Shown one piece after another: positions 1,242 through 38,862 of a DNA stretch of 64,000 bases. The notes beneath the pieces are model-generated. The model was not told where the DNA came from and ran no database searches. It saw only the letters and a program-made list of their open reading frames with translations. A program made the position numbers and the translations under genes. The stretch is taken from positions 682,001 to 746,000 of the forward strand of contig CP120456.1 of the NCBI GenBank assembly GCA_034226945.1. Direction: 5' to 3'. The stretch is from Picochlorum sp. SENEW3 (taxonomy: Eukaryota). Each line of letters begins with the position of its first letter. Position 1 is the first letter of the stretch.

Positions 1242-2669
1242 ATGTTAGCCTCTGTATCCAGGGCGGCAAGAAGAGCCTATCCAGAGGCTCAGGCCTGTTT
1301 CAGGACTGTTTCTTCGACTCAGGCTGCTATGAATACCTCCCTAAGACCTGATGTACGTATTATCGAGGTGATCTGTTGAGTATGCCTGCATATTTGGAAT
1401 TTGTCCTGACGATCGATGTGACACGCGCAGGAAGAGATGCACGCGATTGATGAGTCAAGTAAAGGTCCATCTGGTGTGTTGGAAGTCCCCAGAAGGTTTC
1501 TGATGGGTCCTGGGCCGGCGAATGCCGACCCAAGGGTATTAAACGCGCAGGCTCTTCCTCTGCTTGGGCACATGTGCGTTTATTTTGGTCTGCCGTATAT
1601 TTGATTAAATTTGAGTGTCTAAATGCTAATGTTTTACAGGCATCCACCATTCTTGAAGATTATGGATGAGATCCAGGAAGGCCTCAGGTACCTGTTCCAG
1701 ACAAAGTCTCCATATACACTGTGTGTGAGTGGGACTGGTCATGCTGGTATGGAAGCTTGCATCGCCAATTTGGTGGAGCCAGGGGAGACTGTGATTGTTG
1801 GGAACAAGGGAATTTGGGGAGAACGTGTGTGTGACATGGCGGGAAGATTTGGCGCAAATGTTGTGGAATTGAAGAAAGAGGCAGGCAAGACATTTTCTTT
1901 TGACGAGTTGAAGGCGGCGGTGGAGAAGGAGAAGCCAGCAGTGCTCTTCTTGTGCCAAGGAGAGTCATCTACTGGAGTGCAACAGAGTCTTGCAGGGCTT
2001 GGTGATTTGTGCGAAAAGAATGGCACTCTGCTCTTGGTGGATACCGTCTGTTCCTTGGGTGGAGTTCCATTGTTTGCTGATGAGTGGAAGGTGGATGCCA
2101 TTTACAGTGGAAGCCAGAAATGCTTGTCTGCCCCACCTGGTGCTGCCCCCCTTTTCCTCAGCCAGAGGGCTTTGGACAAGATCAAATCACGCAAGACAAA
2201 AGTGCGCAGTTATTATTTGGACATGAATCTGGTGGGTGACTACTGGGGATGGTATGGCAGCAGAAGCTATCATCACACTGGAATGGTGAGCATGTGGTAT
2301 TCGATGAGAGAGGCGTTGGCCCTCGTCGCCGAAGAAGGGCTTGATGCAATGTGGAAAAGGCATCAATCTGTCCACGAGCAGCTCTGGGCAGGATTGAGCG
2401 AGATGGGATTGAAGCCTTTCGTGGAGGATCCAAAAGATCGTCTGTGCACTGTGAACACCATCAAGGTTCCAGAGGGAGTTGATTGGGCTGCAGTTTGCAA
2501 AAACGCAATGGACAAGTACGAAGTAGAGATTGCTGGAGGACTTGGACCAAGCGCAGGAAAAGTTTGGAGAATTGGACTCATGGGGTACAATGCTACCCCT
2601 GCCACAGTTGAATTGGTTTTGGCAGCTTTCAAGGATGGCTTGACCAAGCAAGGATATCTTCCAAAGTAA
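1242..2669 (+). CDS. AGT: Alanine:glyoxylate / serine:pyruvate aminotransferase (AGXT-type, class V PLP) with mitochondrial-type presequence
   Basis: Exons 1242-1352, 1431-1573, 1640-2669. Motifs LMGPGPAN, LGHMHP, SGTGHAGME, QGESSTGV, DTVCSLGG, SGSQKCL (PLP Lys), YHHT, GKVWRIGLMG. N-terminus MLASVSRAARRAY; C-terminus YLPK is not a PTS1. Confidence 0.93.
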
Positions 2670-2760: not shown

Positions 2761-3941
2761 TTAATTATTCAAAAGGGTTTGCATCTTATCCACCGTGTAC
2801 AGCATTACACCATTAGCAGGGGCAGCTCGTAGCAAACATGGAGTAAATCCTCTATAAAATCGCCCCACACCACCTTCACTCCATAAAGATTTCATGGTAG
2901 ATACGAAGTTTGGATACTTTCTTTCAGAGGGAATGATTGAGTCAGTCATCATTGCACTCTTAATCACATCAACTGGATAAATGGCCAGCCAGTACATGAT
3001 TCCACCCAGGCCACCAGCGCCAATAACAACAGGTGCAGAGAGGTCTTTAACTTCACAATTTTGATGCTCTGCCATCTTCCTCTTCATTACCTCAAATGAT
3101 CCCAGATAGATTGCGTTAGCTGGCGTATTCCTGAGTATTGTTGGCCCGAGTCCCTGGAATGGACCTTTGATGCCAGATGTGGCAATAGTTGCCTTAACAC
3201 ACTGAGTTACTGTTGTATAAGGAGCTGCAGTTGTACAAAAAATAAATAAATGTCGTGAATCCAGTGATCAACAAAATTGAATGGAGAAAAACTTACGCTT
3301 GTAGGTAGGATCAGACTTTGCCCTGATAATCTGGACTTGGATCTGCGATTTATAAAAATCTATCGGAGCTTCCGTGAATGCCGCAAGGAAACCCGTTATC
3401 ATACCAGCCTTGTAAAAATCGAGCGTTGTCAGAGTTCTGGTAGTCCCATCTGCATTGGTACCCAGCCATCTCTTTGACTCTCCAAATGCACTGAACAATG
3501 TGGCTCTAAAGAGCATTTGCCCAGCAAGAGGCGATGCAACTCCCTATAGAGTAAATTATACACACAGTGTCATAACAATATTGTATCATCCAACACAAAA
3601 GCCATTCTGCATACCTTGTACAAACCTCCAACTCCTTCCCACTGGAGAGTCTTCTTCAAGCAATCAAAGGCTCCAGAATACACAGGATTCGTTGCGGATT
3701 GTGTCTGTAATCTTACTTTGATAGTATCTACATACATACAGCAGCAATCGATGTTAATTACCGTAACGGATGGCATTGAACAGGTGGTGACCAGAGACAT
3801 ACCAAATGGGTGCCCAACTCCTACGACGGCAATGCCTCCGACAGTTCCAGCAGTACAATCCTTCAGGAATTTCACCACTCCATTGGATGGAGACAACTTA
3901 GCCGTACTCGTCGCCAGGTTTGGTGCTTGAGTCTGCTCCAT
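2761..3941 (-). CDS. Mitochondrial carrier (SLC25), carnitine/acylcarnitine-like subfamily that includes plant BOU and algal CCP1/2
   Basis: Three carrier signature repeats ([34 protein letters not shown]) and [25 protein letters not shown] across 4 exons. Confidence 0.85.
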
Positions 3942-4398
3942 GTGTAACCAAAATTGAAGTGCGACTCGGGAGAAACGAGGATTCCCGAGCGATCTACACC
4001 ACCAAATGAACAAAAAAAGCGAAAAAGACGAAAATGTATCTAGACTATCAAATCTTAATGGCCTTGTAAGCGATTCACACTGGTTTATGGGGCACTACTA
4101 TCTACAATCTGATGGTAGACTTTGTCCATTCTGCCTTGTGTGAACGGTGCATTGTGAGCCCTCAGCAGATTACATTCGTAGTTAAGCCGTGCTAACGAGG
4201 AATGTGGATGGATGCACTGGTTGCGTGAAGACATGAAGGTTTTATCCCTTAGTCTCAATAAAGTCTCAGTGCTAGGTTGATCACTCAACCATGGCCATGT
4301 TTAGCTGTGGACATTACCCATCATGTAGCTGCTGACAGCTGTCACCCTGATTATCTTTCTTTTACATTTCATCGGCGCTTTAGAAGACTGTTGATACC

Positions 4399-5150
4399 AT
4401 GCAAACCATCGTTCGTCGCCAGGGAGGCCGTTTCTATGGCGCTACATGTCGGTGGTTGAGTGACATGCCAACAACGCAAACGCCACCCCCGAACGCAGCG
4501 AGAGGAGCGACTGCTGACCTTTGTGATATTTATATTACCGATCCAGTGGATAAAGTAACACATGGGGGTGTCCAAATCGCACAGCCGATTTTCAAGTACG
4601 CTTGAGAAACCCAGCTCACTATGACCTTAGGGCTTATTTGTTGACAGAACAGGATATCTTCGATCTGCAGGGACCTCGGAGGCAAGATCAGGTTCAGTGG
4701 CAAGATCTCCACTGTTAAGTGCTTTGAGAATAACCCACTTGTGAGGAAAACGCTGGAGGAGGATGGACACGGTCGAGTGTTAGTTGTTGATGGCGGTGGC
4801 AGTTTGAGATGTGCACTGCTTGGTGATAACATCGCTGAGATGGCATATAAGAACGGTTGGGATGTACGTTATGAATCCCTTGTAGTTTGGTTAAGAAAGA
4901 AATTAGGTCAATGTTTTGTGAATTGCAGGGCATTATCATTCATGGTTGCATCCGGGATTCTGAGGACATTGGTAAGATGCCTTTGGGTGTCAAGGCACTA
5001 AATACTTACCCTCTGAAAAGTTCAAAAAGAGATGTAGGGCTTCGAGATGTTCCTTTGACGTTTGCAGGGTGCAATTTTGAGCCAGGAAACTATGTCTATG
5101 CAGACAAGGACGGCATCCTTGTCTCCAAAGAAGAACTTAAAGCAAATTAA
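4399..5150 (+). CDS. RraA-like / 4-hydroxy-4-methyl-2-oxoglutarate aldolase family protein with N-terminal extension
   Basis: Motifs [50 protein letters not shown] over 3 exons. The Arg-rich N-terminus [21 protein letters not shown] resembles a mitochondrial presequence. Confidence 0.9.
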
Positions 5151-5955
5151 TCAATTCATCAGCACTTCCAAGCATCTTCAGCGGCCTCTTTGTATCTCTT
5201 TGTTCATAACTAATTGTCTCGATGTCAGAATGTAAAGATATTCCTAGATCACTCGCGTTTATTTTTTCAATGCTCTTTTTCTTTGCCTTCATTAAATTTG
5301 CTAGGGTTGAATACCGAGGAGTATTCAGCCTCAAATCTGCAGTAACTACAGCTGGTATGGATACATCGATTGTCTGTAGACCGTCATCTATTTCCCTCGT
5401 AACTATTAGTGTATTTCGATCATTGCAATAGTCTACTTGCTTTGCCTGAGTTGCCTGGGCACACTGCATCAATCCAGCCAACATTTGACCAGTTTGACCG
5501 CAATCATCATCCACAGATTGCTTTCCAAGAAAGACTACATCACATGCTTTCATTTGAGCCACATGAGATAGTATTTTCGCAACCTGTAACTGTCTCAGTG
5601 GCTCCTCAGCCAATACGTGCACTGCCTCATCTACAGAACCCTTGGACAAGCCTGTCCTCAACACTTGGACAGCGTCCGCATCACCCACAGTCACAATGGT
5701 CACACCACTAAACACTTTGGATTCCTTTAATCTCAGAGCTTCTTCCAGAGCAATATCACAGAAAGGGTTCAAAGCCCACGCTACTTGAGAAAGATCCAAA
5801 GAACCCTGCATGTAATCAATAAGGCCTTCATCCCTCTTCCTCAACACTCCAATCCAAATCAATATCAGACATACCCCATCCTTATGTACTCGAACGATCG
5901 AGTTGTAATCAGGAACTCGCTTCAAGGCAACAAGGGCTCTTCGAAGAAATGACAT
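5137..5955 (-). CDS. ETFB: Electron transfer flavoprotein beta subunit
   Basis: Motifs VALKRVPD, NPFCDIALEEALRLKE, GKQSVDDDCGQTGQMLAG, REIDDG, DLRLNTPRY..L.N.MKAKKK. One stop-free 69-nt intron at 5806-5874. Confidence 0.92.
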   Translation of the reverse strand: MSFLRRALVALKRVPDYNSIVRVHKDGVCLILIWIGVLRKRDEGLIDYMQGSLDLSQVAWALNPFCDIALEEALRLKESKVFSGVTIVTVGDADAVQVLRTGLSKGSVDEAVHVLAEEPLRQLQVAKILSHVAQMKACDVVFLGKQSVDDDCGQTGQMLAGLMQCAQATQAKQVDYCNDRNTLIVTREIDDGLQTIDVSIPAVVTADLRLNTPRYSTLANLMKAKKKSIEKINASDLGISLHSDIETISYEQRDTKRPLKMLGSADELINLL

Positions 5956-6303: not shown

Positions 6304-8846
<2,543 letters not shown>

Positions 8847-9196
8847 CATAAGTCATCTTCACTGGTCTATTGAGTACGCATCAATTGACATAACCCACAA
8901 TGTAAATCCCCAAACCAGGAATTGCAAAATTGCAAACAGCAGGCTCGAATGGAGATTGGATCGGCCTGCCATCCCCCTGTGCCGGATTGATGAGGCAACG
9001 AGGGTATTCGAGTATCAGGTCAGAAAGCTTGCATGAACATCAGAGAACTCGATTAAATACAAGATAATAAACCTGGTTGATCGATCTTGGCAGTAAGATG
9101 AGTAGTGTACTGACTCAAACAAAGCACGCCTGCTTCTGCAGTCACTTTCGCAGACAACCAAGTATGTGCCGGATATTTTGGATATAATACAAATCC

Positions 9197-10584
9197 ATGT
9201 ACTCATGTTATATCAAAAATGCAGATAAGCAATTGGGAGCGTCTTTGAATCGCAATAAACAGTTATGGCAGCGTATTTCAGAGTCCCGGGACGGTTTGGT
9301 TACAGCTGCAGTTTCCTCTGAAACTGGATCATATGGTGTCTTCACTCTCAACTATGAGGCTGACAATGTGCGTGATATGATTGAGACAGCAGTTGGTTTT
9401 CGACTTTCACTGGTTCTTACTGTGTGGCCGTTTTTGTAGGAAGATCCAAGGTTGACCAGCACGTGGAAAAAGACTATGAATGTTGTAGTCACAGGAGCTG
9501 CTGGGCAGATTGCAAACCATCTTCTGTTTATGATTGCGTCAGGAGAAGTTTTTGGTAGAGATCAGCCAATTGCTCTTCATCTGCTAGGCTCGGAACGTTC
9601 CAGAGAGGCAGTGGAGGGAGTTGCAATGGAACTGGAGGATTCTCTTTATCCCCTTTTGAGACAAGTGATCATCGGAACGGATCCTTACAAGGTGTTCAAG
9701 GATGCCGATTGGGCTATTCTAATCGGTGCCAAGCCACGAGGTCCTGGTATGGAGCGAGCAGACTTGTTGGACATTAATGGTCAAATCTTTCAGGAACAGG
9801 GCAAGGCCATCAATGAGGTTGCTAGCAGGAACTGCAAGATGATGGTCGTAGGAAACCCCTGCAACACAAATGCAATGATTGCAATGGAAAATGCGCCTGA
9901 TATTCCGAGAGAGAACTGGCATGCTTTGACAAGACTGGATGAGAACAGGGCAAAATGCCAGTTGGGACTAAAGGCTGGAAAGTTCTACACATCTGTTACA
10001 AATATGTGTGTTTGGGGAAATCATTCCACATCACAAGTACCGGACTTTGTTAATGCCAAAATCGGGGGAAAGAGAACTCCCGCAGTTATCAAAGATACAC
10101 AGTGGTTGAAAGAAGAGTTCACACCTACTGTTGCCACGAGAGGTGCAGCTTTGATCAAGAAATGGGGAAGATCCTCTGGAGCATCAACAGCTGTATCTAT
10201 TGCTGATGCACTTCGATCCCTTTATACACCAACTCCTGAAGGAGATTGCTTCTCAAGTGCTGTCTGCACTGATGGAAATCCATATGATCTGGAAGGTACG
10301 AACTCTCATTCTCTCTCTGTCTATTGCATTATCTATATCTGATTCATGTATCGCTTATCATTTTTGTAGAGGGTCTTATTTTCAGTATGCCATGTCGATC
10401 AAATGGCGATGGAACATACGAGGTGATTGACGATTTTGTGATCGATGATTGGCTCAGATCAAAGTTGGAGGCAACCCAGCAGGAATTGATTTTGGAGCGC
10501 GACTGCGTTGGCCACCTGATTCCAAATTCTTCCAGAGCAGTGTGTACTATCAAAGAAGACACAATGTTGCCAGGAGAGAATTAA
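9197..10584 (+). CDS. NADP-MDH: Chloroplast NADP-dependent malate dehydrogenase
   Basis: Motifs [55 protein letters not shown]-terminal regulatory extension C...[10 protein letters not shown]. The N-terminal SYGVFTL lacks the land-plant Cys pair. Confidence 0.95.
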
Positions 10585-14146: not shown

Positions 14147-17100
14147 ATGCTCGAAACAAGTTTAACGAGCATGCTCGGACCCGTACGAGCTCCTTGTCGA
14201 CTGCAAAGTAGACAAAACTGTAAAAATATCGGACAGAAGTTAGGGTTTGTTCGATTTAATGGTCTGAAGGGAGTTCGTGTGACCAGATCCGCATGGAGTT
14301 CCGGAAAGCCCTCGACTCTTTGGGGCAGGAAGGGTCGCTCTATGGCAACAGTACGTGTTCTAATTTAATAAATTGTTATATAAATTTTACTCTCGTTTTG
14401 AGCTTTGAGACATGTATTCCAACCTCGTTCAGGTGTACGCAAAACACAGTGAGGTGCCAGAGTCACAAGGGCTTTTCAATCCCTCGAACGACAAGGATGC
14501 TTGTGGGGTTGGGTTTGTCGCGGAACTGTCGAAGGTACCAACTCGAAAGACCGTGACTGATTCCTTGGAGATGCTTGTGAGAATGCGGCATCGAGGTGCC
14601 TGTGGATGTGAACCCAACACTGGGGATGGTGCTGGTATCCTTGTGGCGATTCCACATGACTTCCTGGTGCATGAAATCGAGCAATCCAGTGCATTTGTAC
14701 TGCCTAAAAGAGGAGAGTATGGGGTCGGTATGGTCTTTCTTCCGAGGGATCCCGAGCAGTATGACAGCGCAAAGTCTGCATTGAGACGGGTTGTTGAATC
14801 CAGGGGTCACACGATGCTTGGGTGGAGAACAGTGCCAACGGATAGCACCGGCCTTGGAGAAGGTGCTCTCAGGACCCAACCAATCATTGAACAATTCTTC
14901 ATCACCGAGAGTGATAAGCCAAATGGCAAAACTATTGAGCAGCAGATGTTTGTACTCAGGAAATTGATTGAACAGGGGTGGAGGGTTGCAGGTTTGACTG
15001 ATGATGATGCATACATGTGTTCTTTGTCTTCTGAGACAGTGGTGTATAAAGGTCAACTTACTACGGAACAAGTTGAAAGTTTTTTCTTGGATCTTCAGAG
15101 CCCAATGTTTACATCCTATGTGGCATTGGTGCATTCTAGATTTTCCACAAATACATTCCCAGCTTGGCACAGGGCCCAGCCAATGAGAATGCTTGGACAC
15201 AATGGTGAAATCAACACACTCCGTGGAAATGTGAATTGGATGAAGGCAAGACAAGGAGTGATGAGGTGTAACTCTTTGTCTGTAACTGAGAGAACTTTGC
15301 AAAAGCTGCTGCCAATCATACCTAAAGAGCAATCAGATTCTGGTTCATTTGACTCCGTCTTGGAGTTGCTTGTTCGCAGTGGAAGAGACTTGCCGGAGGC
15401 TATGATGATGTGTATTCCAGAAGCATGGCAAAACGATCAGCTGATGTCCCAGGAAAAAAGAGACTTTTACAAGTTCCATTCTTGTATAATGGAGCCATGG
15501 GATGGGCCAGCACTGGTGGCTTTCACAGATGGCCATTTCATTGGAGCAACCCTTGACAGGAATGGACTCAGGCCTGGTCGATATTATGTCACAAAAGACA
15601 AGAGGGTTGTGATGGCTTCTGAGGTAGGAGTTGTCGATATTCTGCCTGAAAATATTGAGAAGAAAGGAAGGCTCATGCCAGGCAATATTTTCCTGGTAGA
15701 CTTCGATTCTCACGCTGTGATTGATGATAAAGAATTGAAGCACAAATATGCAACTTCAAGGCCTTATGGAGAGTGGGTTGAGAAGGAAACTGTTCGTTTG
15801 TATGATGTTGTCAAGAGTGTTCCTCATCCTATCAAACCTCCAGAGATTCAAGGTGCAAATGTCCAAGGGAATGGAAGTGGACCTCCAAAAGGGATACAAA
15901 AGCTTCTCTCACCTTTAAAGGCCTTCGGATATACTACTGAGACGATCGATAAAATCCTGCTGCCAATGTCCTCTACAGCTGCAGATCCCCTGGGATCAAT
16001 GGGAAATGATTCTCCCTTGGCAGTGATGAGTGATAGACCCAAACTGCTGTATGAATATTTCAAGCAATTGTTTGCTCAGGTCACAAATCCTGCCATAGAC
16101 CCTCTGAGAGAAAAATTTGTTACTTCTATGAGAAGTATGATCGGTCCAGAAGGGGATATTACAGAAACTCAGGAGGATCAAGCTCATCGTTTGGATTTAC
16201 CGCATCCATTCCTGAAGCCAGAGGAAATGGAGGCTATCAAGAAGATGCAATTCCGAGGCTGGGCATCAAAGACAATTGATATCACTTGGCCGATCAGTGA
16301 GGGACCGAAAGGTATCACTGCTGCCCTGGATAGAGTGTGTGCTGAAGCAGCTTTGGCTATTGAGGATGGATTTGATTTCATTGTTCTCTCTGACAGGGAA
16401 GCCAACCATTCAAGAGCATCCATGAGCGCATTGATGGCAGTTGGAAGAGTTCATCATCATCTTGTACAGCTGCAAAAGCGATCCAGAGTCGGGTTGTTGG
16501 TTGAAACAGGAGATGCAAGAGAAGTCCACCATTTCTGCTTGTTACTTGGCTTTGGTGTGGATGCCATTTGTCCATATCTTGCAATGGAAACAGTTGTTGG
16601 ACTGCAGCAGGATGGCTTGATTCAGCAGTCATCATCAAGGGATGAGATAATTGATAGATACATCAAAGCAGCCAGGGATGGTGTTGTCAAGGTGATGGCC
16701 AAGATGGGAATTTCAACAGTTGCATCCTACCGAGGTTCCCAAATATTCGAAGCTGTGGGTCTCGGGGATGAAGTCATCAATAGTTGCTTCAAAGGAACTT
16801 CATCGAGGATTGGTGGGTTAGGATTTATGGAATTGGCAAATGATCTTCTCGATCTCCACAAGGTAGCTTATGGTAGTCACTATGAGAGCAATGTCTTGCC
16901 CAATCCTGGATCTTATCATTTCAGGTCGACATCTGAGAACGAAGCACACCTGAATTCTCCCTTGGCAATCGCAAAACTTCAGGAAGCTTCTCGAGAAGGC
17001 AGTATTGCCGCTTACAAGGAGTATTCGAGATTGACCCAAGAATTGAATCGCAAGGTTAACATTCGAGGCATGCTGAAGTTCAAACCATCGCCCACGGGGT

Positions 17101-20100
17101 CAATTCCAATAAGTGAGGTCGAGCCTGCATCGGAAATTTGCAAAAGATTTGTGACGGGAGCAATGTCTTACGGGTCCATTTCTCTCGAAGCTCACACAAC
17201 CCTGGCGATCGCAATGAATTCCATTGGAGGAAAATCAAACACTGGAGAGGGAGGAGAAAATCCTCGACGGCTTGTGCCTAATGAGGATGGATCAAGGAAT
17301 CCTATGAGATCCTCGATAAAACAAGTGGCATCTGGGCGTTTCGGTGTTACAGCAAATTATTTGACCAATTCTGACGAGATCCAAATCAAGATATCTCAAG
17401 GTGCAAAGCCCGGAGAAGGTGGTGAACTTCCTGGTACAAAGGTCAAAGGTGATATAGGTACGCAGAATCTTTGTTGTTTGAACGCTGATGCTCATTCACA
17501 CCCGTCCTAAATTTTGATTTGATATTTCTCTGCAGCAAAAACACGAAAGTCGACAGCTGGAGTGGGACTCATTTCTCCCCCACCTCATCATGATATTTAC
17601 TCCATCGAAGATCTGGCGCAACTCATCTATGATTTGAAGAGCTCCAACCCCGATGCTCGTATATCAGTCAAACTTGTGAGTGAGAATGGTGTAGGTGTCG
17701 TCGCATCTGGTGTTGTGAAAGGCCATGCAGACCATGTCTTGATCTCTGGCCATGATGGAGGAACTGGGGCAGCCAAATGGACATCAATCAAGAATGCTGG
17801 TCTCCCTTGGGAGCTTGGGCTTGCAGAAACACATCAGACTCTCGTAGCGAATGATCTCAGGAGCCGTACTGTTTTGCAGGCAGACGGTCAGATGAAGACA
17901 GGAAGAGATATTGCAGTAGCTGCTTTGCTAGGTGCTGAGGAGTTTGGATTTGCGACTGCTCCTTTGATAACCATGGGATGTATCATGATGAGAAAGTGCC
18001 ACACAAACACTTGCCCAGTTGGTGTAGCTACCCAAGATCCTGTGCTGCGCGCCAAATTTGCAGGAGAGCCGGAACATGTCATCAACTTCTTGTTCATGGT
18101 TGCAGAAGAAATGAGAGAATATATGGCAGAGATGGGATTCAGAACTGTGACAGAAATGGTCGGTAGGGCTGATATGCTTGAGGTCGATGAGGAAGTCATT
18201 CAGGAGAATTCAAAGTTGTCAGGTGTCGATCTCTCAAAGATGTTGATTCCTGCCGCAACTATTCGTCCAGAGGCAAAGCAAACATGTCACATAAAGCAGG
18301 ACCATGGATTGGATACTGGATTGGACCCAGAACTGATTCCTTTATGCAAAGCTGCGCTTCCAGATGATGGAAGCCCAGCAGAGAGTGTTAAAGTCGAGAC
18401 CAAAGTATCTAATGTGAACCGAGCTGTTGGTACTACTTTGTCACACGAGGTGACGAAGAGATTTGGGGAAGAAGGCCTTCCAGCTGATACGATCCACATC
18501 AAGCTGGAGGGACATGCTGGACAATCCCTGGGTGCCTGGCTGTGCCATGGAATCACTATTGAGCTCGAAGGGGATGCAAATGATTATGTCGGAAAAGGCC
18601 TGTCAGGTGGTCTCGTTGCAGTGTATCCTTCGAAGAAGTCATCATTCTCCCCTGAGGAGAACATAATTGCTGGAAATGTCTGTTTGTATGGTGCTACAGC
18701 AGGTGAAGCTTACCTCAGTGGGGTAGCAGCAGAGAGATTCTGTGTACGTAATTCTGGAGCTCAAGCTGTTGTTGAAGGCGTGGGTGACCATGGATGTGAG
18801 TACATGACAGGGGGAACCGCAGTCATTTTGGGCAAGATAGGGAAAAACTTTGGAGCTGGAATGAGTGGAGGGCTTGCGTTTGTCTATGACCCATCTGACA
18901 CCATGCATTCACTATGCAATGTAGACATCGCACAAGATCTCTATCCAATTGTTGAACAAGAAGATATAGACACATTGCACGGTTTGATCAGCAACCATCT
19001 GAAATTCACAGGATCACCGATTGCCCAGAGAATCCTGGAAAATTGGAAAGAGACTCTTCCTGCTTTCAAGAAAGTGTACCCAAGAGATTACAAAAATGCC
19101 TTGGAGGAACAAAAGAGGATTGAGAGTGCACAAGAAGAAGAGAAACAGCTCATGTCCGAAATGGTGCCAGGAGAAGATGCATTTGACACTCTCAGGAAAA
19201 TGGCCAAAAGCATTGTGGACGATGGTGCCAAACTCAGCACGTCTCCAAGAAGAATTGTCTCACCGCCCACACCAAAGTTGTCAGCTGATCTGAAGGAGGA
19301 GTATGACCGTCTTCTCAAAGATGCAACAAGTGGCCTTCCTGTAGCAGGGAGGGAGCCAGTTTGGGATTCAGAGAGACCCAGAATTGTACAGAACGGTGAG
19401 ACACAAAAGCAGGGAGGATTCATGAGGTATGAGCGTGAGCCTTTACCCTATCGTCCAGTGGATGAGAGGTTGAAGGATTATAACGAAGTACTTGCCCCAT
19501 CTGCAAACGGAACAAATTCAGATCTCTTGAAAACACAGAGTGCCAGGTGTATGGACTGTGGTACCCCGTATTGCCTCAATAAGGAAACTGGATGTCCACT
19601 CGGAAACCTGATTCCGGAGTGGAATACATTGGTCTGGCAAGGAAGGTGGAAAGAGGCAGCAGACAGGTTGCTTGCTACAAATAACTTCCCTGAATTTACA
19701 GGCAGGGTCTGCCCGGCTCCTTGTGAAGGCTCTTGTGTCCTCGGCATTAATCAGAATCCAGTCACCATTAAAACCATGGAAGTCTCGATCATTGATAAAG
19801 CATTTGAGGAAGGCTGGATAGTTCCACGCCCCCCAAAGACAAGAACTGGAAGACGAGTAGCTATCATTGGCAGTGGTCCTTCAGGAATGGCAGCGGCTGA
19901 CCAGTTGAACAAGATGGGTCATGCTGTGACAGTGTTTGAAAGAGCTGACCGTATTGGGGGATTGATGATGTATGGTGTACCAAATATGAAGACTGGCAAG
20001 AAGGAGATTGTTCAGAGAAGGGTTGACTTGATGGCCGATGAGGGCGTCAAATTTGTTACAAATGCATCTGTGGGCAAAAATGTGGATGTGAAACTTCTGA

Positions 20101-20981
20101 AAGCAGAATCTGACGCTGTCATTCTTGCTGCTGGTGCTACCAAGCCAAGAGACTTGCCCATCGAAGGAAGGGAGTACAATGGCATTCACTTTGCGATGGA
20201 ATTTCTGACTGCAAACACGAAAAGCCTGCTTGATTCGAACCATGCAGATGGCAAGTACATTTCAGCCAAAGGCAAACGTGTTGTAGTAATTGGTGGTGGC
20301 GACACAGGAACAGATTGCATTGGCACATCTGTGAGACACGGGGCAACAGAAGTAATCAATCTTGAGCTCCTAAGCAAACCTTCAGACACGAGATCTGAGA
20401 GCAACCCTTGGCCATACTTCCCACGAGTATTCAAGGTTGACTATGGCCATGCAGAGGCATCCCATGCCTTTGGTAAGGATCCAAGGGAATATGATGTTCT
20501 CACAAAACGATTCATTGGAGACGAAAATGGAAATCTGAAGGGCATTGAGATCGTTGATGTTGTCTGGACGCCACCTCAGAATGGAGGAAGGCCTACATTT
20601 GAAGAGGTGGAGGGAAGCAGTAGGATCATTGAAGCAGATCTGATACTGCTTGCTATGGGATTCTTGGGACCAGAAGAAACCCTCGCAGAGGCTCTGGGCA
20701 TTGAATGTGATGAGAGATCAAACTTCAAAGCCCAGTATGGTAACTTTGCCACGTCAATAGATGGAGTATTCGCTGCAGGAGATTGCCGCAGGGGCCAGTC
20801 CCTCGTCGTTTGGGCTATCGCGGAGGGTCGCGAGGCAGCTGATTCTTGCCACAAGTATCTGATGACTAAGGATGCATCCTTCCCTGATGATACAGATGAA
20901 TTTACAGGAGGGGTGATTGATCTCGACACATTTGAGAGCACAGGAGGACTATTGGGAGCCTCTGGTGCAGTAGCAGCATAA
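14147..20981 (+). CDS. GLT1: NADH-dependent glutamate synthase (NADH-GOGAT), plastid-targeted
   Basis: Transit exon 14147-14350, mature start [46 protein letters not shown]. Fused beta domain [26 protein letters not shown] and GSGPSG. Confidence 0.97.
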
Positions 20982-21000: not shown

Positions 21001-22405
21001 TTAAGACATTTTCAAATTCAATTCCTTTGCATTGACAATAGATGGGGCTGCCTTTGGAATAGATTCAAATGGTCCGTCAACAAAGCCCAACACATCTGGC
21101 TTGTTCCACACTGGATAATCCTGCAAAATTGCAGCAACATTGCTTGCTGCAAGTGTTGCCATGCCAGACCTTGTCCATTGCGTCGCAGACGCAATATGAG
21201 GGACAATGACAGCATTCTCACACTCTTTGAGCCCTGGTTTCATCAATGGCTCGTCTTCGAAAACATCCAAACCGACTCTGAACTCTGGATTTTTCTTCAA
21301 GTGAGCAACCAAGGCAACCTCATCAATGACAGGTCCACGTGCTGCATTTACAAGCACTGCATTGGACTTCATCATATTCAATTTCTCTTCATTGATCAAA
21401 TGTTTGGTGTTTTCATCCAGGTTACAGTGCAGACTGACGACATCCGACACCTTCAAGACCTCCTCCACAGTCCCACACCGAGTCACTGTGATCTCATCCC
21501 CACCTTTGCTCTGAACCAACTTGGAGTAATCTTTGACATACTCCTCCAAAAATTTGTTCTCAAACGGATCATAATACACAAGATTCATCTTATGCCCTTC
21601 CACCATCATTCTGGCATACGCAGTACCAATCCTTCCTGCACCAATGATGCCCACAGTTTTACCCTGTAAAAGGTTTCCGACAAAAAGAGTTGGAAGCCAT
21701 CCCTTGTACTTTTCCGCCCGCATAAAGCTATCTCCCTCTACAACTCTTCTCGCAGCAGCAAATGTCAACGCTGCTGCAAGCTCAGCAGTCGTCTCCGTCA
21801 ACACCCCTGGAGTATTACCAACTGGAATACCGCGAGCAGTTGCCTCTGGAACAACAACATTGTTATACCCTACTGCATAATTACTGAAAGCTCTTCCACC
21901 CGCTTTCTTCAATGCTTCAAACAATTCACTTCCCCAGTCTTCCGTAAGCTGCCCAATCACCCCATCACAAGAGTTCCCGATAAATTTCACAATAGTGGCA
22001 TTATCCAGAATTGTCTCTGGAGACTGAGAGATTTCAACTCTGCACCCAGCAGAGGCCAAAATCTGCTTCCATCGATCCCCAGGAAGATTTTTTGTCACAA
22101 TCACTCTTTTGGCTCCTTCTGGATTCACAACCTGCGATCAAACGGCACAATGTCAGAACAGAATCCCAGAAAGCCCCAGTAGTAGACTCCTACAACGATC
22201 CCGCCAACACCCCACCAAACCCGCATCGATTCCCACAATGCTACCCATAAATATATAGATCAGCATTTCATATAAAAAATCATACCTCCACTGGGATCCC
22301 ATTGACCGTTTCTGTAGCCATTGATCGCACCGACTGGACACTCAACCCAAGGTTTTGTCTCGTAGATGCTGCTGTACGATACAATGCACGTGCGATTCTG
22401 TTCAT
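21001..22405 (-). CDS. HPR1: Hydroxypyruvate reductase (plant HPR1-type) with mitochondrial-type presequence
   Basis: Motifs NPEG.KRV.VTK.LPG.RW, DGVIGQLTEDWG, FSNYAVGYNNV, GNTPGVLTETTAEL, GAGRIG, VPHIASA..WTR.GMATLAA. Exon 1 MNRIARALYR..VRSMA; C-terminus LKMS (no SKL). 154-nt intron at 22132-22285. Confidence 0.95.
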
Positions 22406-22601
22406 GATGAATACAACACGAATAATGTTTTTTAAAAACAGTGTCGACATCCCCATCGCTGATGTGGACATTTAAGCAGCGGCCCCTTCCGAGCGAATTC
22501 TTATTCTATTTATACAAGGAACTTTTTTGCGCTTGGTGGTTGGACCGTGTGTTTTACTTTGGCAACACGTCGGATATGTATTCTGTTTGAATATTGTTGT
22601 G

Positions 22602-23633
22602 ATGGAGAGTGTTTTTGAATCGTTTGGACTGAGTTTTGTAATCTCAAATCCACGCGAGCAGGACAATCCAATTGTGTATGCCTCAGAGAACTTTTACAAG
22701 ACAACAGGATACTCTCCAAAAGAAGTCATTAACCGAAATTGTCGGTTTTTACAAGGTAAAGATACATCCCGACAGAGTGTGTGCGAGATTCGGGATGCCA
22801 TTCGGGAGGAGCGAGCTACGTCGACGTGTCTTTTGAATTATAGAAAGAATGGTACCCCATTCTGGAATGCTTTTCATCTAGAACCTGTGAAAGATGTCCA
22901 TGGGATGACGGAATTTTACATCGGGGTCCAAGTCGACGTAACGGAGATGTTCAAGAGTGCTTTGGGAGAGGCTGCAGTGTCTGAATGTTCAAAGGATGTG
23001 TGTAGTAAGGCACAGCAGTTGGCGGATGAGGTGAAAAAGTATGCCGACAAGCTTCATGAGAATGCGCGTGTTAGTGTAGCTGTTGCTGACTCTATACCGA
23101 GTCCTCTTCTGTCAGGTTTGTCAACAATCAATCATGCATTTTGTTTGACGGATCCCAGCATCCCGGGTAATCCAATGGTATATTGTTCACCTGGGTTTTT
23201 ACGTATGACGCGGTATTCGAGTTCGGAGTTGATTGGAAAGCCGTGCTCGATGCTGCAAGGGGAATTGACAGATCAGAAAGAGGTGGAGAAAATCCGGGCT
23301 GCTATTCATCATGAGCCGCCTCGGCCAGTATCGGCTTGTTTGGCAAATTATAGAAAGGATGGAGAGGTATTTATGAATTCTGTTCATATTGCACCGGTGA
23401 ATTGCTCATCAGGAAAGGTGAAGTATTTCTGTGGAGTTCAAAGTGAAGTTCCAATGAATGTAGATGAGGGTTGTAAGACGCGCAATCCATTGGTATTATT
23501 AAAGCAAAAGGGTGTTATAGGAGCTGTGCGAGTGGCGGCTCGAGGACTTGCCGATTCGGGGCTTGTGAGAAAGCCAGATCATCAAGTGCCATGCAATAGT
23601 GTTCTGAATCCTGATAAATTAATGGAGAAATGA
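22602..23633 (+). CDS. Twin-LOV (LOV/LOV, PAS/LOV; TLP1/LLP-like) blue-light sensor without an effector domain
   Basis: LOV1 DNPIVYASENF..NRNCRFLQG..NYRKNGTPFWN; LOV2 GNPMVYCS..GKPCSMLQG..NYRKDG. C-terminal GVIGAVRVAARGL resembles the plant TLP1 tail. Confidence 0.88.
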   Translation: MESVFESFGLSFVISNPREQDNPIVYASENFYKTTGYSPKEVINRNCRFLQGKDTSRQSVCEIRDAIREERATSTCLLNYRKNGTPFWNAFHLEPVKDVHGMTEFYIGVQVDVTEMFKSALGEAAVSECSKDVCSKAQQLADEVKKYADKLHENARVSVAVADSIPSPLLSGLSTINHAFCLTDPSIPGNPMVYCSPGFLRMTRYSSSELIGKPCSMLQGELTDQKEVEKIRAAIHHEPPRPVSACLANYRKDGEVFMNSVHIAPVNCSSGKVKYFCGVQSEVPMNVDEGCKTRNPLVLLKQKGVIGAVRVAARGLADSGLVRKPDHQVPCNSVLNPDKLMEK

Positions 23634-23715: not shown

Positions 23716-26700
23716 CTATGAGGAAGAGGAGGTTTCTTTTGGTTTTGGCTTTGTTGCTTCATCAACGAGGTACACAAGTCCTCTGAAGTGCATTCCTGAA
23801 TGGTTACTCAGAGACATTTCGCACGTTCTCGACGTAGAATATCCATCAGAACATCCTGCGACGTTGAGATGCTGGAGGGAGGACGAGGTCAATTCTGGGT
23901 ACCTCATTCCCCTGTCACCAGCCATACCACAGCATGGAATGTTGGATGGAACCACCTCATCAGCACACATGGATGCTACCTTCATGAACGACTCCTCAAT
24001 GCCCATTTTCTTTGAAGAACATGGAACATGGATGGCTACAGTATCCCTGACCTTTGAGAAGTCCAACTTATCGAGCATGAAGTGCCTGATAAACTCCACT
24101 GGTTCATACAGAGAGAAACGCAGTGCTGGGTCAGACAAACCGGATTTGATCTGAGCCAAGCATGGCGATGTGTCGCACACGATTGGGTACTTTCCATTAT
24201 CTGATGCTTTCAGCAAAGCTGCCTCGAGTTCAGATCCCTTCTTTGCTGCTGCATCCTTGAAACCTCTGCTGTTAAACATCATACCACAGCAGGATGATGA
24301 CAATCCCTCGGGATACACCACCTCATACCCTCCTTTTTGGAAGATTGACAACAGCTTCTCATGCACACTTGCATTTTCGGTATCGTTCTTAGCTGGTCCC
24401 ATGATTCGTGTCACACAGGCAGGAACATATACCACCTTTCTTGGGATGCCCTTCTCAGCTTCAACCGAGACTTCTGGAGCGGGTGGATTCATGTTCAATG
24501 GAGATGCAGCCTTTGGCATGTATGGGTTCCATTCTGGTACCATGTGTCCTGAAATCTTATTCAATGCTCTGGAAATAGTTTGAAGAGGCCATGGTCCGAG
24601 AATTTGATGGGCCACATTGACAGCCCCAAGGAGTTTGTTAAATGTCCAAGCTGTTGCTCCAAAGTTATTTGCAACCATATCAGCCACCTTGCTTGCCTTT
24701 GGCATTTCATCCATTGCTTCGCTTCTGATATGTTTCACTAATTCACCTGTGTTGATCTTCACAGGGCATTTCTCTTGGCACATACCATCAGCGGCACATG
24801 TATCAATTCCATCGTACTCGAAAGTCTTTGACATTTCCGCAAGCCTTTTTTCTTGCTCTGGCGTCCTGGATGGGATTGACTTCAATCGATAAATTTCCTT
24901 GAATACAGCAATGCGCTGTCTTGGCGTCAAAGTGAGATCCCTTGATGGACAGTTGCTCTCACAAAATCCGCATTCAATACAACGGTTCACGAGCTTGCTT
25001 GCTGTTGGGGATGGCTTCAAATTCTTCACATGCACCATAGCATCCTCATTCAAAATTACGCCAGGATTCAGCACATAATCAGGGTCAAAGATTTCCTTCA
25101 GCTCCCACATCAATTCAGTTGCCTTGGCACCCCACTCCATCTCAACATATGGGGCCATGTTTCTACCAGTTCCGTGCTCTCCTTTCAGAGATCCTCTATG
25201 CTTCACTGCAACAATGTGGCACATTTCATCCATCATGTCCTGGAAACGCTTCACTTCTTCTGGTGTACGGAACCCTTGAGAGAAGACAAGGTGCAAGTTT
25301 CCTTCGAGTGCATGACCAAAGCAGGATGCATCATGGTATCCATGCTTTTCAAACATTTCAATGAGATCCATAGTCATGTCACCGAGCCTATCAGTTGGGC
25401 ATGCAACATCCTCCAGAAGCATCGTCGTTCCATCCTCTCTCGCTCCTCCAACAATAGGAATGAGACCCTTTCTCACATCCCAGTACACCTTGGCATCCTT
25501 TTGGTCGTGCTTAAACTCATATGCATCTAAAGATGTCTCCTTGCCAGGAGCAGGTCCAAATGGAAGTTGAGATCCTTCCAGCGCTACTCGAATCTCTTCA
25601 ATACGAGCCTTCAAATCTTCTTCAGTTTGACCTCTGCATTCAATCAATAGAGCTGCAGCCATTGAGCCACACCCATCAATATCTGGTACCAGGCGAGTCA
25701 TGTCTTCATTCCCAGCACACTCCCTCAATGAAGCCCTGTCGAACATTTCTACAGCATCTACGGATGTTTGAGATCTAAGGACAGCAGCTGCTTGGCAGGC
25801 GGCCTTCACGTGAGGGAACATGACGAATGCAGATGCCTTATTTGGCCACTCTGGCACTGTATTGTAGGTCACCTGTGACACAAATCCCAATGTTCCTTCG
25901 CTTCCAATGATCACTCTCTTGATAATCTCAATCGGATCATCTACTGGAAAATCAACCAAAGCGTTCAAAGAATACCCAGTCGTGCACTTGATGGCAAACT
26001 TTCTGCGAATAAGAGAAGCCAATTGCTTATCCGACTGCACTCTCTTGGCCAAGTCCACCACATTGCTCACCAAATCAGCATGAGACTTCAAAAATGCCTG
26101 CTTACTTTCCTCGCTCGATGTATCCAACACAGTACCATCAACAAAAACCACCCGAAGATCCTTCAACGTGTGATATGTATTCTGTGATACACCGCAGCAC
26201 ATTCCAGAGGAGTTGTTAGACACAATTCCTCCAATCATGCATGAATCGATAGATGATGGATCTGGACCAATTTTATACTGTACTGGAAGCTTGTTCTTCA
26301 TCTTGTGCTGTGCCAAAATCCTATTCACCTCACCCCCAATCAACCCGGGCTCGACGGTAATGCTGCTTCCATCCCCATGAACTGTGAAATTCCTAAAATT
26401 CTTACCAGTGTGTGAAATCTTCACCAAAACAGAATCCGTCAAAGCCTGGCCAGACAAAGATGTACCGGCAGCCCTGAATGTAATAGGAACCCCATGCTTC
26501 TTCGCAATCGGCAACAGCTTGATCGCCTCCTCCTCCGAATGCATCTTGACCACCAACTTTGGATTCAAACGATAAAAACTCGCATCTGTCCCATACGCAA
26601 AAGTCCTCACCGGATCCGTGAATTGCCTTGTCTTGGGCACAAACTCTGAAATCTCCTCGATAAATGCGGCATACCTCCCATCTTCAATTCGACGCCCATC

Positions 26701-27054
26701 CATGTTTTCAAATGCCGTCACCTTGCGATCAAGCTCGTGAGGCTCCACAATGGAAATAGCCCCAACCTCATCAATATGAGTCAATGGTAACGCAGAAGGC
26801 TCAACCTTGGTCTCTACCATCTGTTGCGCAGCTGGTTGCGATGCTGCTGGTCGGGTTTGCTGAAAGCGTCCATGTCCACCACGGAATTCCTCAAAGTTCT
26901 CCAACCCCTTCTTTCCCTTGCCCTTACTCACCAGACCTCGAGAACTGGTATTCAACAACCCATATGCATTGTTATCAGCAGAAACACTACCACCAGCGCC
27001 CCTCTTGGTGACAACAAGATTGTCCAACACGCGTGACACAAGGCGTCGTCTCAT
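23716..27054 (-). CDS. GYD1: Glycolate dehydrogenase / FAD-Fe-S D-lactate dehydrogenase (GlcD plus GlcF-like fusion, algal GYD1 type), intronless
   Basis: Motifs YGTDASFYRLNP, FRAAGTSLSGQA, GPDPSS, GSEGTLG, GHALEGNLH, KGEHGTGRN. Ferredoxin motifs CIECGFCESNCP and CAADGMCQEKCP, two CCG domains. Arg-rich N-terminus. Confidence 0.9.
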   Translation of the reverse strand: MRRRLVSRVLDNLVVTKRGAGGSVSADNNAYGLLNTSSRGLVSKGKGKKGLENFEEFRGGHGRFQQTRPAASQPAAQQMVETKVEPSALPLTHIDEVGAISIVEPHELDRKVTAFENMDGRRIEDGRYAAFIEEISEFVPKTRQFTDPVRTFAYGTDASFYRLNPKLVVKMHSEEEAIKLLPIAKKHGVPITFRAAGTSLSGQALTDSVLVKISHTGKNFRNFTVHGDGSSITVEPGLIGGEVNRILAQHKMKNKLPVQYKIGPDPSSIDSCMIGGIVSNNSSGMCCGVSQNTYHTLKDLRVVFVDGTVLDTSSEESKQAFLKSHADLVSNVVDLAKRVQSDKQLASLIRRKFAIKCTTGYSLNALVDFPVDDPIEIIKRVIIGSEGTLGFVSQVTYNTVPEWPNKASAFVMFPHVKAACQAAAVLRSQTSVDAVEMFDRASLRECAGNEDMTRLVPDIDGCGSMAAALLIECRGQTEEDLKARIEEIRVALEGSQLPFGPAPGKETSLDAYEFKHDQKDAKVYWDVRKGLIPIVGGAREDGTTMLLEDVACPTDRLGDMTMDLIEMFEKHGYHDASCFGHALEGNLHLVFSQGFRTPEEVKRFQDMMDEMCHIVAVKHRGSLKGEHGTGRNMAPYVEMEWGAKATELMWELKEIFDPDYVLNPGVILNEDAMVHVKNLKPSPTASKLVNRCIECGFCESNCPSRDLTLTPRQRIAVFKEIYRLKSIPSRTPEQEKRLAEMSKTFEYDGIDTCAADGMCQEKCPVKINTGELVKHIRSEAMDEMPKASKVADMVANNFGATAWTFNKLLGAVNVAHQILGPWPLQTISRALNKISGHMVPEWNPYMPKAASPLNMNPPAPEVSVEAEKGIPRKVVYVPACVTRIMGPAKNDTENASVHEKLLSIFQKGGYEVVYPEGLSSSCCGMMFNSRGFKDAAAKKGSELEAALLKASDNGKYPIVCDTSPCLAQIKSGLSDPALRFSLYEPVEFIRHFMLDKLDFSKVRDTVAIHVPCSSKKMGIEESFMKVASMCADEVVPSNIPCCGMAGDRGMRYPELTSSSLQHLNVAGCSDGYSTSRTCEMSLSNHSGMHFRGLVYLVDEATKPKPKETSSSS

Positions 27055-27455
27055 GGTATTACGACACTATGAAATCAATCAAATCAGTCTTAATGGAATA
27101 TAAATGAAATACCATCAATGGCATGGCCAGGGTCTGGGAGTCTCATAGTCAAAATCTCCCATCTGGATATCACCAATATATTGCTGTGGGTGGCGCCTTG
27201 TTCGTAGTAGACTAGTCTTCGTAGTAGAGTACCCTGTCCTTTGGTTCATCTCCAGGGCAAGTACTACAAGCATCATTGATATCAACGGATGGTAGATACA
27301 ATTACCTCTGATTTTGATATCTGAGAATTTAATAGAGTATTACTACGAGAAGAAGGGTCTCCTACCACGAACACATTGTATTCTGTCATACAGGCAAGGG
27401 TCTTTGTTGAAGCCGGATACAGTAACAAACACTACGACGAGTAATATCCGTGACG
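27055..27455. promoter_or_regulatory. Bidirectional promoter between GYD1 and SGAT
   Basis: About 400 bp between divergent ATGs. Tandem TTCGTAGTAGA (27201, 27218), GAGTACCCT (27227), ACCTCTGAT (27304) and several inverted CTACGA/CTACTA-like copies. Confidence 0.55.
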
Positions 27456-37863: not shown

Positions 37864-38862
37864 TTAATTCTTCACCTTGTCAGCAGGAATGAGGCCAACG
37901 TTTTTCAAAATGCCAACAGCAGACTTGTCTAAATTCAAAGTATACATGTGCAAGCCTGGCACTCCAGCAGCAAGGAGCCTCTGGCACATTTGTGTCCCAA
38001 GAGACACACCAAACGCTTTGACAGCCTCATCATTGTCTTTGATGGTTTCAAGCACATTTGTGATATGCTCTGGCACATACGTCTTGCAGAAGCTTGTCAT
38101 GCGCTTAAATCCACCATAGTTCATTATAGGCATGATGCCTGGAAGAATTGGAACATTGATGCCAGCAGACTTGCAATCAGTCACAAACTTGAGAAACAAA
38201 TCAACATCATAAAAGAGCTGTGTGATCACAAAGTCAGCACCGGCTTCAACCTTCTTCTTTAGATAATCAATGTCTTCCCAATACTTCTTCTTCATCTCCT
38301 CTGGATCGTCTACAATCTGATCTGGATGTGCTTCTGGGTACCCACTCACACATATTCCAAAGTAATCTCCATGCTTTTCGCGAATATACTTGACCAAATC
38401 CAGAGCACATGCAAATCCTCCTTCTACTTGTGTAAACTTGTCCTCTCCATGAGGTGGATCGCCCCGCAAAGCGAGGATGTTTCTGATCCCTGCTTCTTTG
38501 CACTGCTGTAGGGCCGCCTCGAGCTTTTCAACAGGCATATTCGTGCATGTCAGATGCATCATAGTCTCCGCTTGAACCTATACAGCGTCAGAAATTCATT
38601 TAATCTCACTCACGTGGGATTATGCAGTCAATAGACGACCTACCTCGTTCTGCATCTTCTCGGCAATTGTCAGAGTCAGGTCTGCTGTCGACCCTCCAGC
38701 ACCCCATGTAATGTCACAGAACAATGGATCCAGGGATTTCATATATATCTGACGCTGATGAAGGTTTTTGACCCCTTCATCGGTCTTTGGAGGAAAGTAT
38801 TCAAACGAGTAAAATGTCTCTCCATTATCAATTTTCGAGTTGATCTTCTCTATGATCTTCAT
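37864..38862 (-). CDS. MTHFR: Methylenetetrahydrofolate reductase, eukaryote-type catalytic domain only (about 310 aa)
   Basis: Motifs [72 protein letters not shown]. Stop directly after the barrel; intron 38578-38643. Confidence 0.93.

Follow-up and report, generated by a model that had tools for sequence, protein, structure and literature searches.

An RraA-like gene of Picochlorum in a conserved block with AGXT and a mitochondrial carrier: a candidate enzyme for glyoxylate adducts

The closest described relatives of the protein considered here are the small RraA proteins of Thermus thermophilus HB8 (structure 1j3l) and Pseudomonas aeruginosa (3c8o), of about 160 residues. We compare them with the product of an RraA-like gene of the alga Picochlorum sp. 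SENEW3. The gene lies in a 64,000-nucleotide stretch of contig CP120456.1 (assembly GCA_034226945.1, positions 682,001 to 746,000, hereafter the window), beside genes for an aminotransferase of the alanine/serine:glyoxylate type (AGXT) and for a mitochondrial carrier of the SLC25 family. What appears new here is the conserved AGXT/carrier/RraA block, with its extension by a glycolate-dehydrogenase-like (GlcDH-like) gene in one lineage; the RraA protein itself is ordinary by sequence. The finding is a lead, not a result.

The two bacterial proteins and the algal one share the same domain over its whole length. For P0005, an orthologue from a related alga, a fold search gives identities of 42% to 1j3l and 52% to 3c8o, with template modelling (TM) scores of 0.91-0.92. 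The R-D pair is kept in both bacterial structures; the pair preceding it is G-D in 3c8o and G-G in 1j3l. To this common plan the algal protein adds a presequence-like extension, the conserved segment PPP(D/N)..R and an insert of nine residues (P.PVD.V), and its gene is nuclear, spliced and placed among photorespiration genes. The Thermus protein reportedly has both 4-hydroxy-4-methyl-2-oxoglutarate (parapyruvate, or HMG) aldolase and oxaloacetate decarboxylase activity, and yeast YER010C is likewise said to be an aldolase and decarboxylase; both accounts go back to Mazurkewich et al. in 2014. YER010C of S. cerevisiae (2c5q) is a eukaryotic member of the fold (E 1.1e-8), at 17% identity; it is longer (230 aa) and belongs to the long branch of the family, as opposed to the small RraA one.

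The Pseudomonas putida aldolase acting on HMG and on CHA (4-carboxy-4-hydroxy-2-oxoadipate), of structure 3noj, has the common alpha-beta-beta-alpha fold, and its residues G101-D102...R123-D124 have equivalents in the algal protein. The latter is nonetheless only 23% identical to it, about 70 residues shorter, and fails the LigK equivalog profiles. By analogy, 3noj-like chemistry is expected: a class II pyruvate aldolase with oxaloacetate decarboxylase as a side activity. E. coli RraA (1q5x), an inhibitor of RNase E, has the same fold and core length (TM 0.92, 42% identity), but carries V-D and R-Q at the catalytic positions, unlike the algal G-D and R-D. The expected mode of action is that of the LigK/ProA HMG/CHA aldolases, not that of enterobacterial RraA. 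The class I aldolases HOGA1 and KHG, finally, resemble the algal protein in proposed function only, namely in converting 4-hydroxy-2-oxoglutarate to glyoxylate and pyruvate and in the pairing with AGXT. Their fold is unrelated, and they work through a Schiff base where the RraA-like enzyme would use a metal. That reaction is named in PMC4945632.

Gene model, catalytic residues and fold

The RraA-like gene consists of three exons (Table 1). Both of its splice joints are seen in contigs of three out of four sequencing runs (X2, X7 and X9), which come from three studies; the remaining run, X1, is DNA-like, reading through intron 1 and showing no joints. The labelling of the runs as RNA is a guess, and only spliced joints are taken as evidence. 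Contigs of X7 (record 16, from 4381) and X2 (record 12, from 3960) span the start codon at 4399, and an in-frame TAG lies upstream of it at 4381-4383. The Pfam profile PF03737 (cut-off 24.5) is matched by exon 2 at its positions 29-86 (60.8 bits, 2.3e-16) and by exon 3 at positions 88-152 (71.7 bits, 1e-19), so that the profile continues across intron 2. Over its full length, extension included, P0005 (206 aa, encoded on a contig of 1,062 nt) shares 85% identity with the window protein, and it confirms both exon junctions. An earlier reading of the window, made from its letters alone (the sequence-only reading), had proposed an RraA-like gene here; the gene model, PF03737 and the splice joints bear it out. 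A 237-aa transcriptome protein of another alga, P0004, contains the central RraA segment twice in tandem; either it has been duplicated internally or the assembly is at fault.

The spliced protein contains G117-D118-x20-R139-D140-S-E-D143, followed by D189-K-D191-G192. For catalytically competent RraA-like class II pyruvate aldolases, the motif is reported (Mazurkewich, 2014) to be (G/D)-x20-R-D followed, three positions on, by an acidic residue; the first of these stretches agrees with it. Columns G, D, R, D and D..DG are invariant in all 40 aligned homologues, 31 of them algal and nine bacterial; every one of the GD, RD and DxDG motifs that the sequence-only reading had called intact is found.

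Among family profiles, P0005 passes NCBIfam TIGR01935 'RraA family' with 205 bits (cut-off 123.8). The enterobacterial RraA equivalog TIGR02998 fails (166 bits versus 241.25), as do the equivalogs of the LigK/PcmE/ProA HMG/CHA aldolases, TIGR02798 (41.2 versus 304.5 bits) and NF006731 (46.5 versus 179). The broader equivalog NF006875, 'ribonuclease E activity regulator RraA', is passed with 219 bits (cut-off 136): as it too is named RraA and passes where TIGR02998 failed, the name alone does not settle the function. The window holds no aromatic-catabolism genes, and so lacks the gene-set context of protocatechuate/gallate 4,5-cleavage. In a feature search, the protein falls in a cluster of 467 mostly chlorophyte proteins, after which a streptophyte cluster is the nearest.

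The fold was judged from an AlphaFold model of P0005 (85% identity to the window protein), whose mean predicted local distance difference test (pLDDT) score is 84.3. Among solved structures, the closest matches are small RraA proteins, namely those of P. aeruginosa (3c8o, E 5.8e-50), Geobacillus, T. thermophilus (1j3l, 1.1e-41) and E. coli. The model superposes on 3c8o, 1q5x and 1j3l with TM scores of 0.89-0.93 and root-mean-square deviations (rmsd) of 1.6-1.9 Å (on 3c8o, TM 0.92 and rmsd 1.7 Å), and matches the HMG/CHA aldolase 3noj with an E value of 5.9e-12. Residues 85-198 of P0005 align to residues 68-181 of the 3noj chain. Both ranges have the same length, which puts G118, D119, R140 and D141 of P0005 on residues 101, 102, 123 and 124 of the aldolase. 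There, Gly-101 lines the pyruvate pocket, Arg-123 is essential and stabilises the enolate, and Asp-124 is a metal ligand; most RraA homologues bearing such a motif are described as likely class II pyruvate aldolases (PMC5065237). Altogether, the protein is probably an RraA-type, metal-dependent class II pyruvate aldolase/oxaloacetate decarboxylase, and the enzyme class of the sequence-only reading finds support in sequence, motif and P0005 model fold alike.

Chlorophyte RraA-like proteins have two features of their own. A conserved T-P-P-P-D/N-x-x-R stands before the fold, unlike in the aligned bacterial rows (columns 88-125 of alignment A1), and the insert P-x-P-V-D-x-V is common to them and absent from the aligned bacterial sequences. 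The fumarylacetoacetate-hydrolase (FAH) family includes oxaloacetate decarboxylases and acylpyruvases; the fusion of an RraA-like domain (residues 338-447 of a 501-aa model) to a domain of this family hints at a shared pyruvate/oxaloacetate chemistry. Another RraA-like domain fusion is with hexulose-6-phosphate synthase (NCBIfam NF009399 and NF005442 for the fusions).

About 28 residues, with four R+K and one D+E, precede the conserved PPPN of the window protein. The N-terminal extension noted by the sequence-only reading is thus present and basic, and all 23 full-length chlorophyte orthologues have one (21-70 aa, 3-7 R+K, 0-4 D+E); it is absent from the nine bacterial rows of the alignment. 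In the P0005 model it looks disordered: the pLDDT averaged by ten-residue block is 53-55 over residues 1-30 and 66 over residues 31-40. Mitochondrial presequences typically have an Arg two to three residues ahead of the cleavage site, and R-x-(F/Y/M) stretches can be read near the end of the extension in many chlorophyte orthologues. Because AGXT and ETF-beta of the same window start in the same style, the extension is probably a mitochondrial presequence that would take the protein to the matrix, although algal chloroplast transit peptides can look alike. In orthologues P0009, P0020, P0040, P0043 and P0093 the protein starts immediately ahead of the conserved PPP stretch; truncation of the models is the probable cause, a second, cytosolic form being the alternative.

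Conservation of the AGXT/carrier/RraA block

A scan of metagenome contigs with exon 3 yields 40 loci, half of them intron-less and bacterial-like and half intron-bearing and algal. Nine of the 20 algal loci have at least 1.5 kb upstream of RraA, and in all nine the carrier adjoins it. The two genes are head-to-head in eight loci (L001, L004, L005, L009, L011, L014, L015 and L018). Eight loci run on past the carrier, and in seven of them AGXT comes next, in the orientation of the window. The block reads AGXT(+)/carrier(-)/RraA(+). Judged by the named proteins that match best, L001 is Coccomyxa-like (85-88%), L005, L009, L011, L015 and L018 are Trebouxia-like, and L006 is an unplaced chlorophyte.

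Three loci, L001, L009 and L011, each reach 10 kb 3' and 9.2-9.4 kb 5' of RraA. We compared them with 29 gene bins of the window by a filtered tblastx search. L009 and L011 have only AGXT, the carrier and RraA in common with the window. L001 shares these three in the order AGXT, carrier, RraA, and additionally the GlcDH-like gene, which lies directly upstream of AGXT. As nothing else is kept, the block has been retained while its surroundings changed. In L006:4403-12429 (VFQP010000594.1), malate dehydrogenase, RraA and the carrier follow one another on one strand, with no AGXT within 10 kb; as RraA and the carrier are adjacent in tandem there, something other than a common divergent promoter must also hold them together.

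Among named species, locus tags or accessions place the genes close together in Chlorella vulgaris (AGXT KAI3429701 and RraA KAI3429703; in a second assembly RraA KAL4855134, carrier KAL4855135 and AGXT KAL4855138), Micractinium tetrahymenae (carrier ABPG75_010878, RraA ABPG75_010880), Trebouxia sp. C0010 (RraA ABBQ32_006572, carrier ABBQ32_006573) and Parachlorella kessleri (RraA N2152v2_009572, AGXT N2152v2_009575). The linkage is not a peculiarity of this genome, which would have spoken against the sequence-only reading: the block recurs in several trebouxiophyte lineages. Across other algae it holds for Coccomyxa-like and Trebouxia-like loci, Chlorella vulgaris, Micractinium and Parachlorella, and fails in Chlamydomonas, Tetradesmus, Scenedesmus and Pleodorina. 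Since the genes are unlinked in Chlorophyceae, the block is a feature of Trebouxiophyceae (Chlorellales, Trebouxiales, Coccomyxa) and not of all green algae. It was not found in the literature searched, PMC7826186 included; Foflonker et al. 2016 may list the gene.

The carrier is known by JGI/KEGG-style names that group it with the SLC25A20/29 amino-acid and carnitine carriers. All 23 chlorophyte carrier orthologues (among P0124-P0173) have Arg-Asn in the helix-4 stretch GL..T.LRN.PAN. By the contact-point rule of Robinson and Kunji, amino-acid carriers are said to have Arg-Asp/Glu at this point, and keto-acid carriers Arg followed by Gln, His, Asn or Thr. With Arg-Asn in helix 4, the name 'carnitine/acylcarnitine carrier 20/29' may mislead, and the protein could plausibly transport a hydroxy or keto acid.

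Other neighbours were considered and set aside. ETF-beta and the DEAH helicase, as functional partners of RraA, are kept in none of L001, L009 and L011. The neighbouring malate dehydrogenase (MDH), as a supplier of oxaloacetate in the same compartment, looks by its signature like the plastid NADP type, and it is kept only in L006.

The surrounding window, its annotation and expression

In the window, as the sequence-only reading had it, the carrier is the divergent neighbour of RraA: the two are head-to-head, with 457 bp between the start codons. This spacer is plausibly one shared promoter. Carrier contigs reach 4033-4035 and one RraA contig starts at 4381, contig ends not being transcript ends. 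On its other side, RraA is convergent with ETF-beta, and the coding sequences overlap by 14 nt (5137-5150); since RraA contigs reach 5196-5229, the two transcripts overlap at their 3' ends.

Table 1. Features of the window, with annotated gene identifiers (back-calculated gene lengths) and mean transcripts per million (TPM; control/atrazine/glyphosate) from the supplement of PMC12198440
Feature	Position	Strand	Remarks	Gene identifier (length)	TPM
Alanine-aminotransferase-like gene (AlaAT)	upstream of AGXT				
Class-V aminotransferase, alanine/serine:glyoxylate type (AGXT)	1242-2669	+	N-terminal basic extension; convergent with carrier	PSENEW3_00002034 (1428 nt)	24/19/9
SLC25 mitochondrial carrier	2761-3941	-	4 exons, 320 aa, identical to P0124	PSENEW3_00002035 (1181 nt)	38/57/167
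Divergent spacer	3942-4398	.	457 bp, from carrier ATG 3941 (-) to RraA ATG 4399; candidate bidirectional promoter		
RraA-like gene	4399-5150	+	three exons, spliced product 203 aa; annotated from Met23 at 4465	PSENEW3_00002036 (686 nt)	160/123/114
RraA exon 1	4399-4595	+	aa 1-65 plus 2 nt: presequence-like extension (about aa 1-28), conserved segment, first strand		
RraA intron 1	4596-4670	+	75 nt, GT..AG; joint 4595->4671 in X2, X7, X9		
RraA exon 2	4671-4863	+	VVDGGGS; G117-D118 codons 4822-4827		
RraA intron 2	4864-4928	+	65 nt, GT..AG; joint 4863->4929 in X2, X7, X9		
RraA exon 3	4929-5150	+	R139-D140-S-E-D143 (4953-4967), PLKSSKR, D189-K-D-G; stop TAA 5148-5150		
ETF-beta	stop 5137-5139		first gene downstream of RraA, convergent	PSENEW3_00002037 (819 nt)	
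DEAH helicase, then malate dehydrogenase	6304-10584		downstream of ETF-beta; fused helicase + MDH model	PSENEW3_00002038 (4281 nt)	
Glutamate synthase (GOGAT)	14409-20978				
D-2-hydroxyacid dehydrogenase, hydroxypyruvate-reductase-like (HPR-like)	21004-22137	-			
PAS-domain gene	22476-23630				
FAD-linked oxidase + 4Fe-4S dicluster protein, glycolate-dehydrogenase-like (GlcDH-like)	23719-27066	-	1,116 codons	PSENEW3_00002043 (3339 nt)	43/33/70
Second class-V aminotransferase	27632-28885	+			
MTHFR gene	37867-38577				

AlaAT, AGXT, GOGAT, the HPR-like and GlcDH-like genes and the second class-V aminotransferase all lie within 29 kb of the window. A photorespiration gene cluster has been reported for this alga (Foflonker et al. 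2016, as related in PMC12198440 and PMC7826186); positions 1-28885 of the window are that cluster, with RraA inside it. The PMC7826186 supplement describes a neighbourhood in which a mitochondrial carrier (Cre06.g295400 and orthologues) adjoins hydroxypyruvate reductase, and lists a Chlorella variabilis AGXT model in it. Its Picochlorum entry flags only AGXT with the DEAH helicase (g362/g365), a pair given also for Chlorella variabilis and for the streptophyte Klebsormidium nitens (kfl00085_0080, kfl00085_0100); in the latter, kfl00085_0090 sits between the two genes. RraA is not named in the text or supplement of PMC7826186. It is physically clustered with photorespiratory genes, and this clustering is conserved in several species.

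In the PMC12198440 supplement the carrier is PSENEW3_00002035, and we assigned the identifiers of its neighbours by back-calculated length (reads x 75 / transcript count). By the same measure, one gene of the public annotation seems to combine the DEAH helicase with malate dehydrogenase; InterPro domains of both occur likewise in g365, a model of the older version v2.0. The RraA gene is well expressed in Picochlorum control cultures. Under glyphosate, RraA and AGXT both go down while the carrier and the GlcDH-like gene go up, over three conditions only. In Chlamydomonas, the protein of the orthologue Cre13.g578150 is 2.3-fold more abundant in the light (mean 1.24e8) than in the dark (5.3e7; PMC6369806, Dataset S2).

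Proposed role in glyoxylate handling and its alternatives

RraA is kept beside AGXT and the carrier, and in places beside a GlcDH-like gene, and for this reason we read it as a photorespiratory enzyme. The nuclear-encoded protein would enter the mitochondrial matrix by means of its short basic presequence. From what is known of the family, it would bind Mg2+ or Mn2+ and form an enolate of pyruvate on the metal; such chemistry would allow both the cleavage of 4-hydroxy-2-oxo acids bearing a 4-carboxylate and the decarboxylation of oxaloacetate. Glycolate dehydrogenase and AGXT are mitochondrial in chlorophytes. The former would supply glyoxylate and the latter pyruvate, in one compartment with oxaloacetate, and glyoxylate could then condense with pyruvate or oxaloacetate to 4-hydroxy-2-oxoglutarate and oxalomalate. 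These adducts, and parapyruvate as well, would be cleaved by the RraA-like enzyme, and the glyoxylate and pyruvate so regained would be dealt with by AGXT and alanine aminotransferase. The chemistry of the adducts is described in PMC4945632: glyoxylate reacts non-enzymatically with oxaloacetate to oxalomalate, which decarboxylates to 4-hydroxy-2-oxoglutarate, and also condenses with pyruvate to the latter; either product strongly inhibits both aconitase and isocitrate dehydrogenase, and the plant aldolase behind a weak observed activity is given there as not identified. Taken as a whole chain, a matrix RraA enzyme that cleaves glyoxylate/pyruvate aldol adducts in the mitochondrial glyoxylate branch of photorespiration is the reading we prefer, a tentative one that is about as likely to be wrong as right.

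A more specific form of it is unlikely, though worth stating: AGXT, the carrier and RraA would constitute a conserved mitochondrial glyoxylate module, in which RraA is the missing plant and algal 4-hydroxy-2-oxoglutarate/oxalomalate lyase and the carrier moves glycolate, glyoxylate, glycerate or hydroxypyruvate through the inner membrane. The lyase would then guard aconitase and isocitrate dehydrogenase from the adducts while glycolate dehydrogenase is active. RraA-like proteins that keep the aldolase motif are found in all kingdoms, but we know of no physiological substrate for the eukaryotic ones, and to our knowledge the inner-membrane transport steps of photorespiration are largely unassigned.

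The link to glyoxylate and photorespiration, suggested by the sequence-only reading, stands in part: the conserved AGXT/carrier neighbourhood and the published cluster favour it, while the unlinked genes of Chlorophyceae and the lack of co-regulation with the carrier under herbicides do not. Several points have to be counted against it. In C. reinhardtii, chromosome 13 carries RraA, and chromosome 6 carries GYD1, AGT1, HPR1 and the carrier, the last two 120 bp apart. In C. incerta, Tetradesmus obliquus and Scenedesmus sp. PABB004, separate contigs bear the genes; their tags are about 190 apart in Pleodorina, and in C. sorokiniana the two genes share one contig, with accessions 149 apart. Adjacency read from locus tags or accessions presumes that tags follow gene order, and the Trebouxia-like loci are not mutually independent. 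Near the closest prokaryotic RraA homologues (10 loci, open reading frames about 3.5 kb to each side) there is no metabolic context: the neighbours are a mixture of Hsp20, MutY-like, DUF423, glycogen phosphorylase, topoisomerase and MFS transporter genes. Glyphosate raises the carrier 4.4-fold and brings RraA to 0.7 and AGXT to 0.37 of their levels (three conditions), and the TPM of RraA is 6-7 times that of AGXT. By back-calculated length (PMC12198440), the public annotation seems to start RraA at Met23 (4465), dropping the presequence, and a cytosolic or dual form of the protein may exist. Lastly, no enzyme assay of a plant or algal RraA-like member was found in the literature searched.

Some of these points suit the main alternative, which we hold to be somewhat less probable, in which RraA is a housekeeping oxaloacetate decarboxylase/parapyruvate aldolase with no special tie to photorespiration, and the gene order is inherited because a compact divergent pair with a short common control region is hard to break. 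The family is widespread in bacteria, fungi and plants, most members keeping the motif (PMC5065237), and parapyruvate, which pyruvate yields by a chemical reaction, is an inhibitor of the 2-oxoglutarate dehydrogenase complex (PMC11951559). The nearest protein clusters, chlorophyte and streptophyte, agree with such a role, as do the dispersal of the block in Chlorophyceae, the absence of carrier co-regulation under herbicides and an expression far above that of AGXT. Plain inheritance of a divergent pair fits less well with a block that persists in L001, L009 and L011 while other neighbours change, or with the tandem adjacency of RraA and the carrier in L006. Nor does it account for the partners, which are glyoxylate enzymes and a carrier already grouped with HPR as a photorespiration neighbourhood (PMC7826186).

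The same adjacency to AGXT and to a carrier named after SLC25A20/29 could also belong to hydroxyproline breakdown. In animals, 4-hydroxy-2-oxoglutarate is cleaved in mitochondria and AGXT deals with the glyoxylate; green-algal walls are rich in hydroxyproline. RraA would be the algal counterpart of HOGA1, a 4-hydroxy-2-oxoglutarate aldolase, with AGXT clearing the glyoxylate and the carrier importing an amino acid. We find this improbable: no hydroxyproline dehydrogenase or gene akin to it was seen in the window or in the related loci, the remaining neighbours (GlcDH-like, HPR-like, GOGAT) belong to photorespiration, and the carrier has Asn in place of the Asp or Glu of amino-acid carriers. 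The protein might otherwise be a regulator which, like E. coli RraA, binds and inhibits an organellar RNase E/G or a DEAD-box helicase. The NF006875 match would suit this, and the P0005 model has a fold near-identical to E. coli RraA in 1q5x and 2yjv (TM 0.92-0.93). Yet G-D and R-D, kept in the window protein and all 40 homologues, replace the V-D and R-Q of E. coli, TIGR02998 is failed, and the neighbourhood has no RNA-decay gene, its DEAH helicase not being kept in L001, L009 and L011; a regulatory role thus seems very improbable.

If the neighbourhood reflects nothing but inherited gene order, the gene belongs to a known family and has nothing unusual about it. Otherwise, the block points to a candidate enzyme for glyoxylate adducts in photorespiring cells and, next to it, to a candidate mitochondrial transporter of photorespiration.

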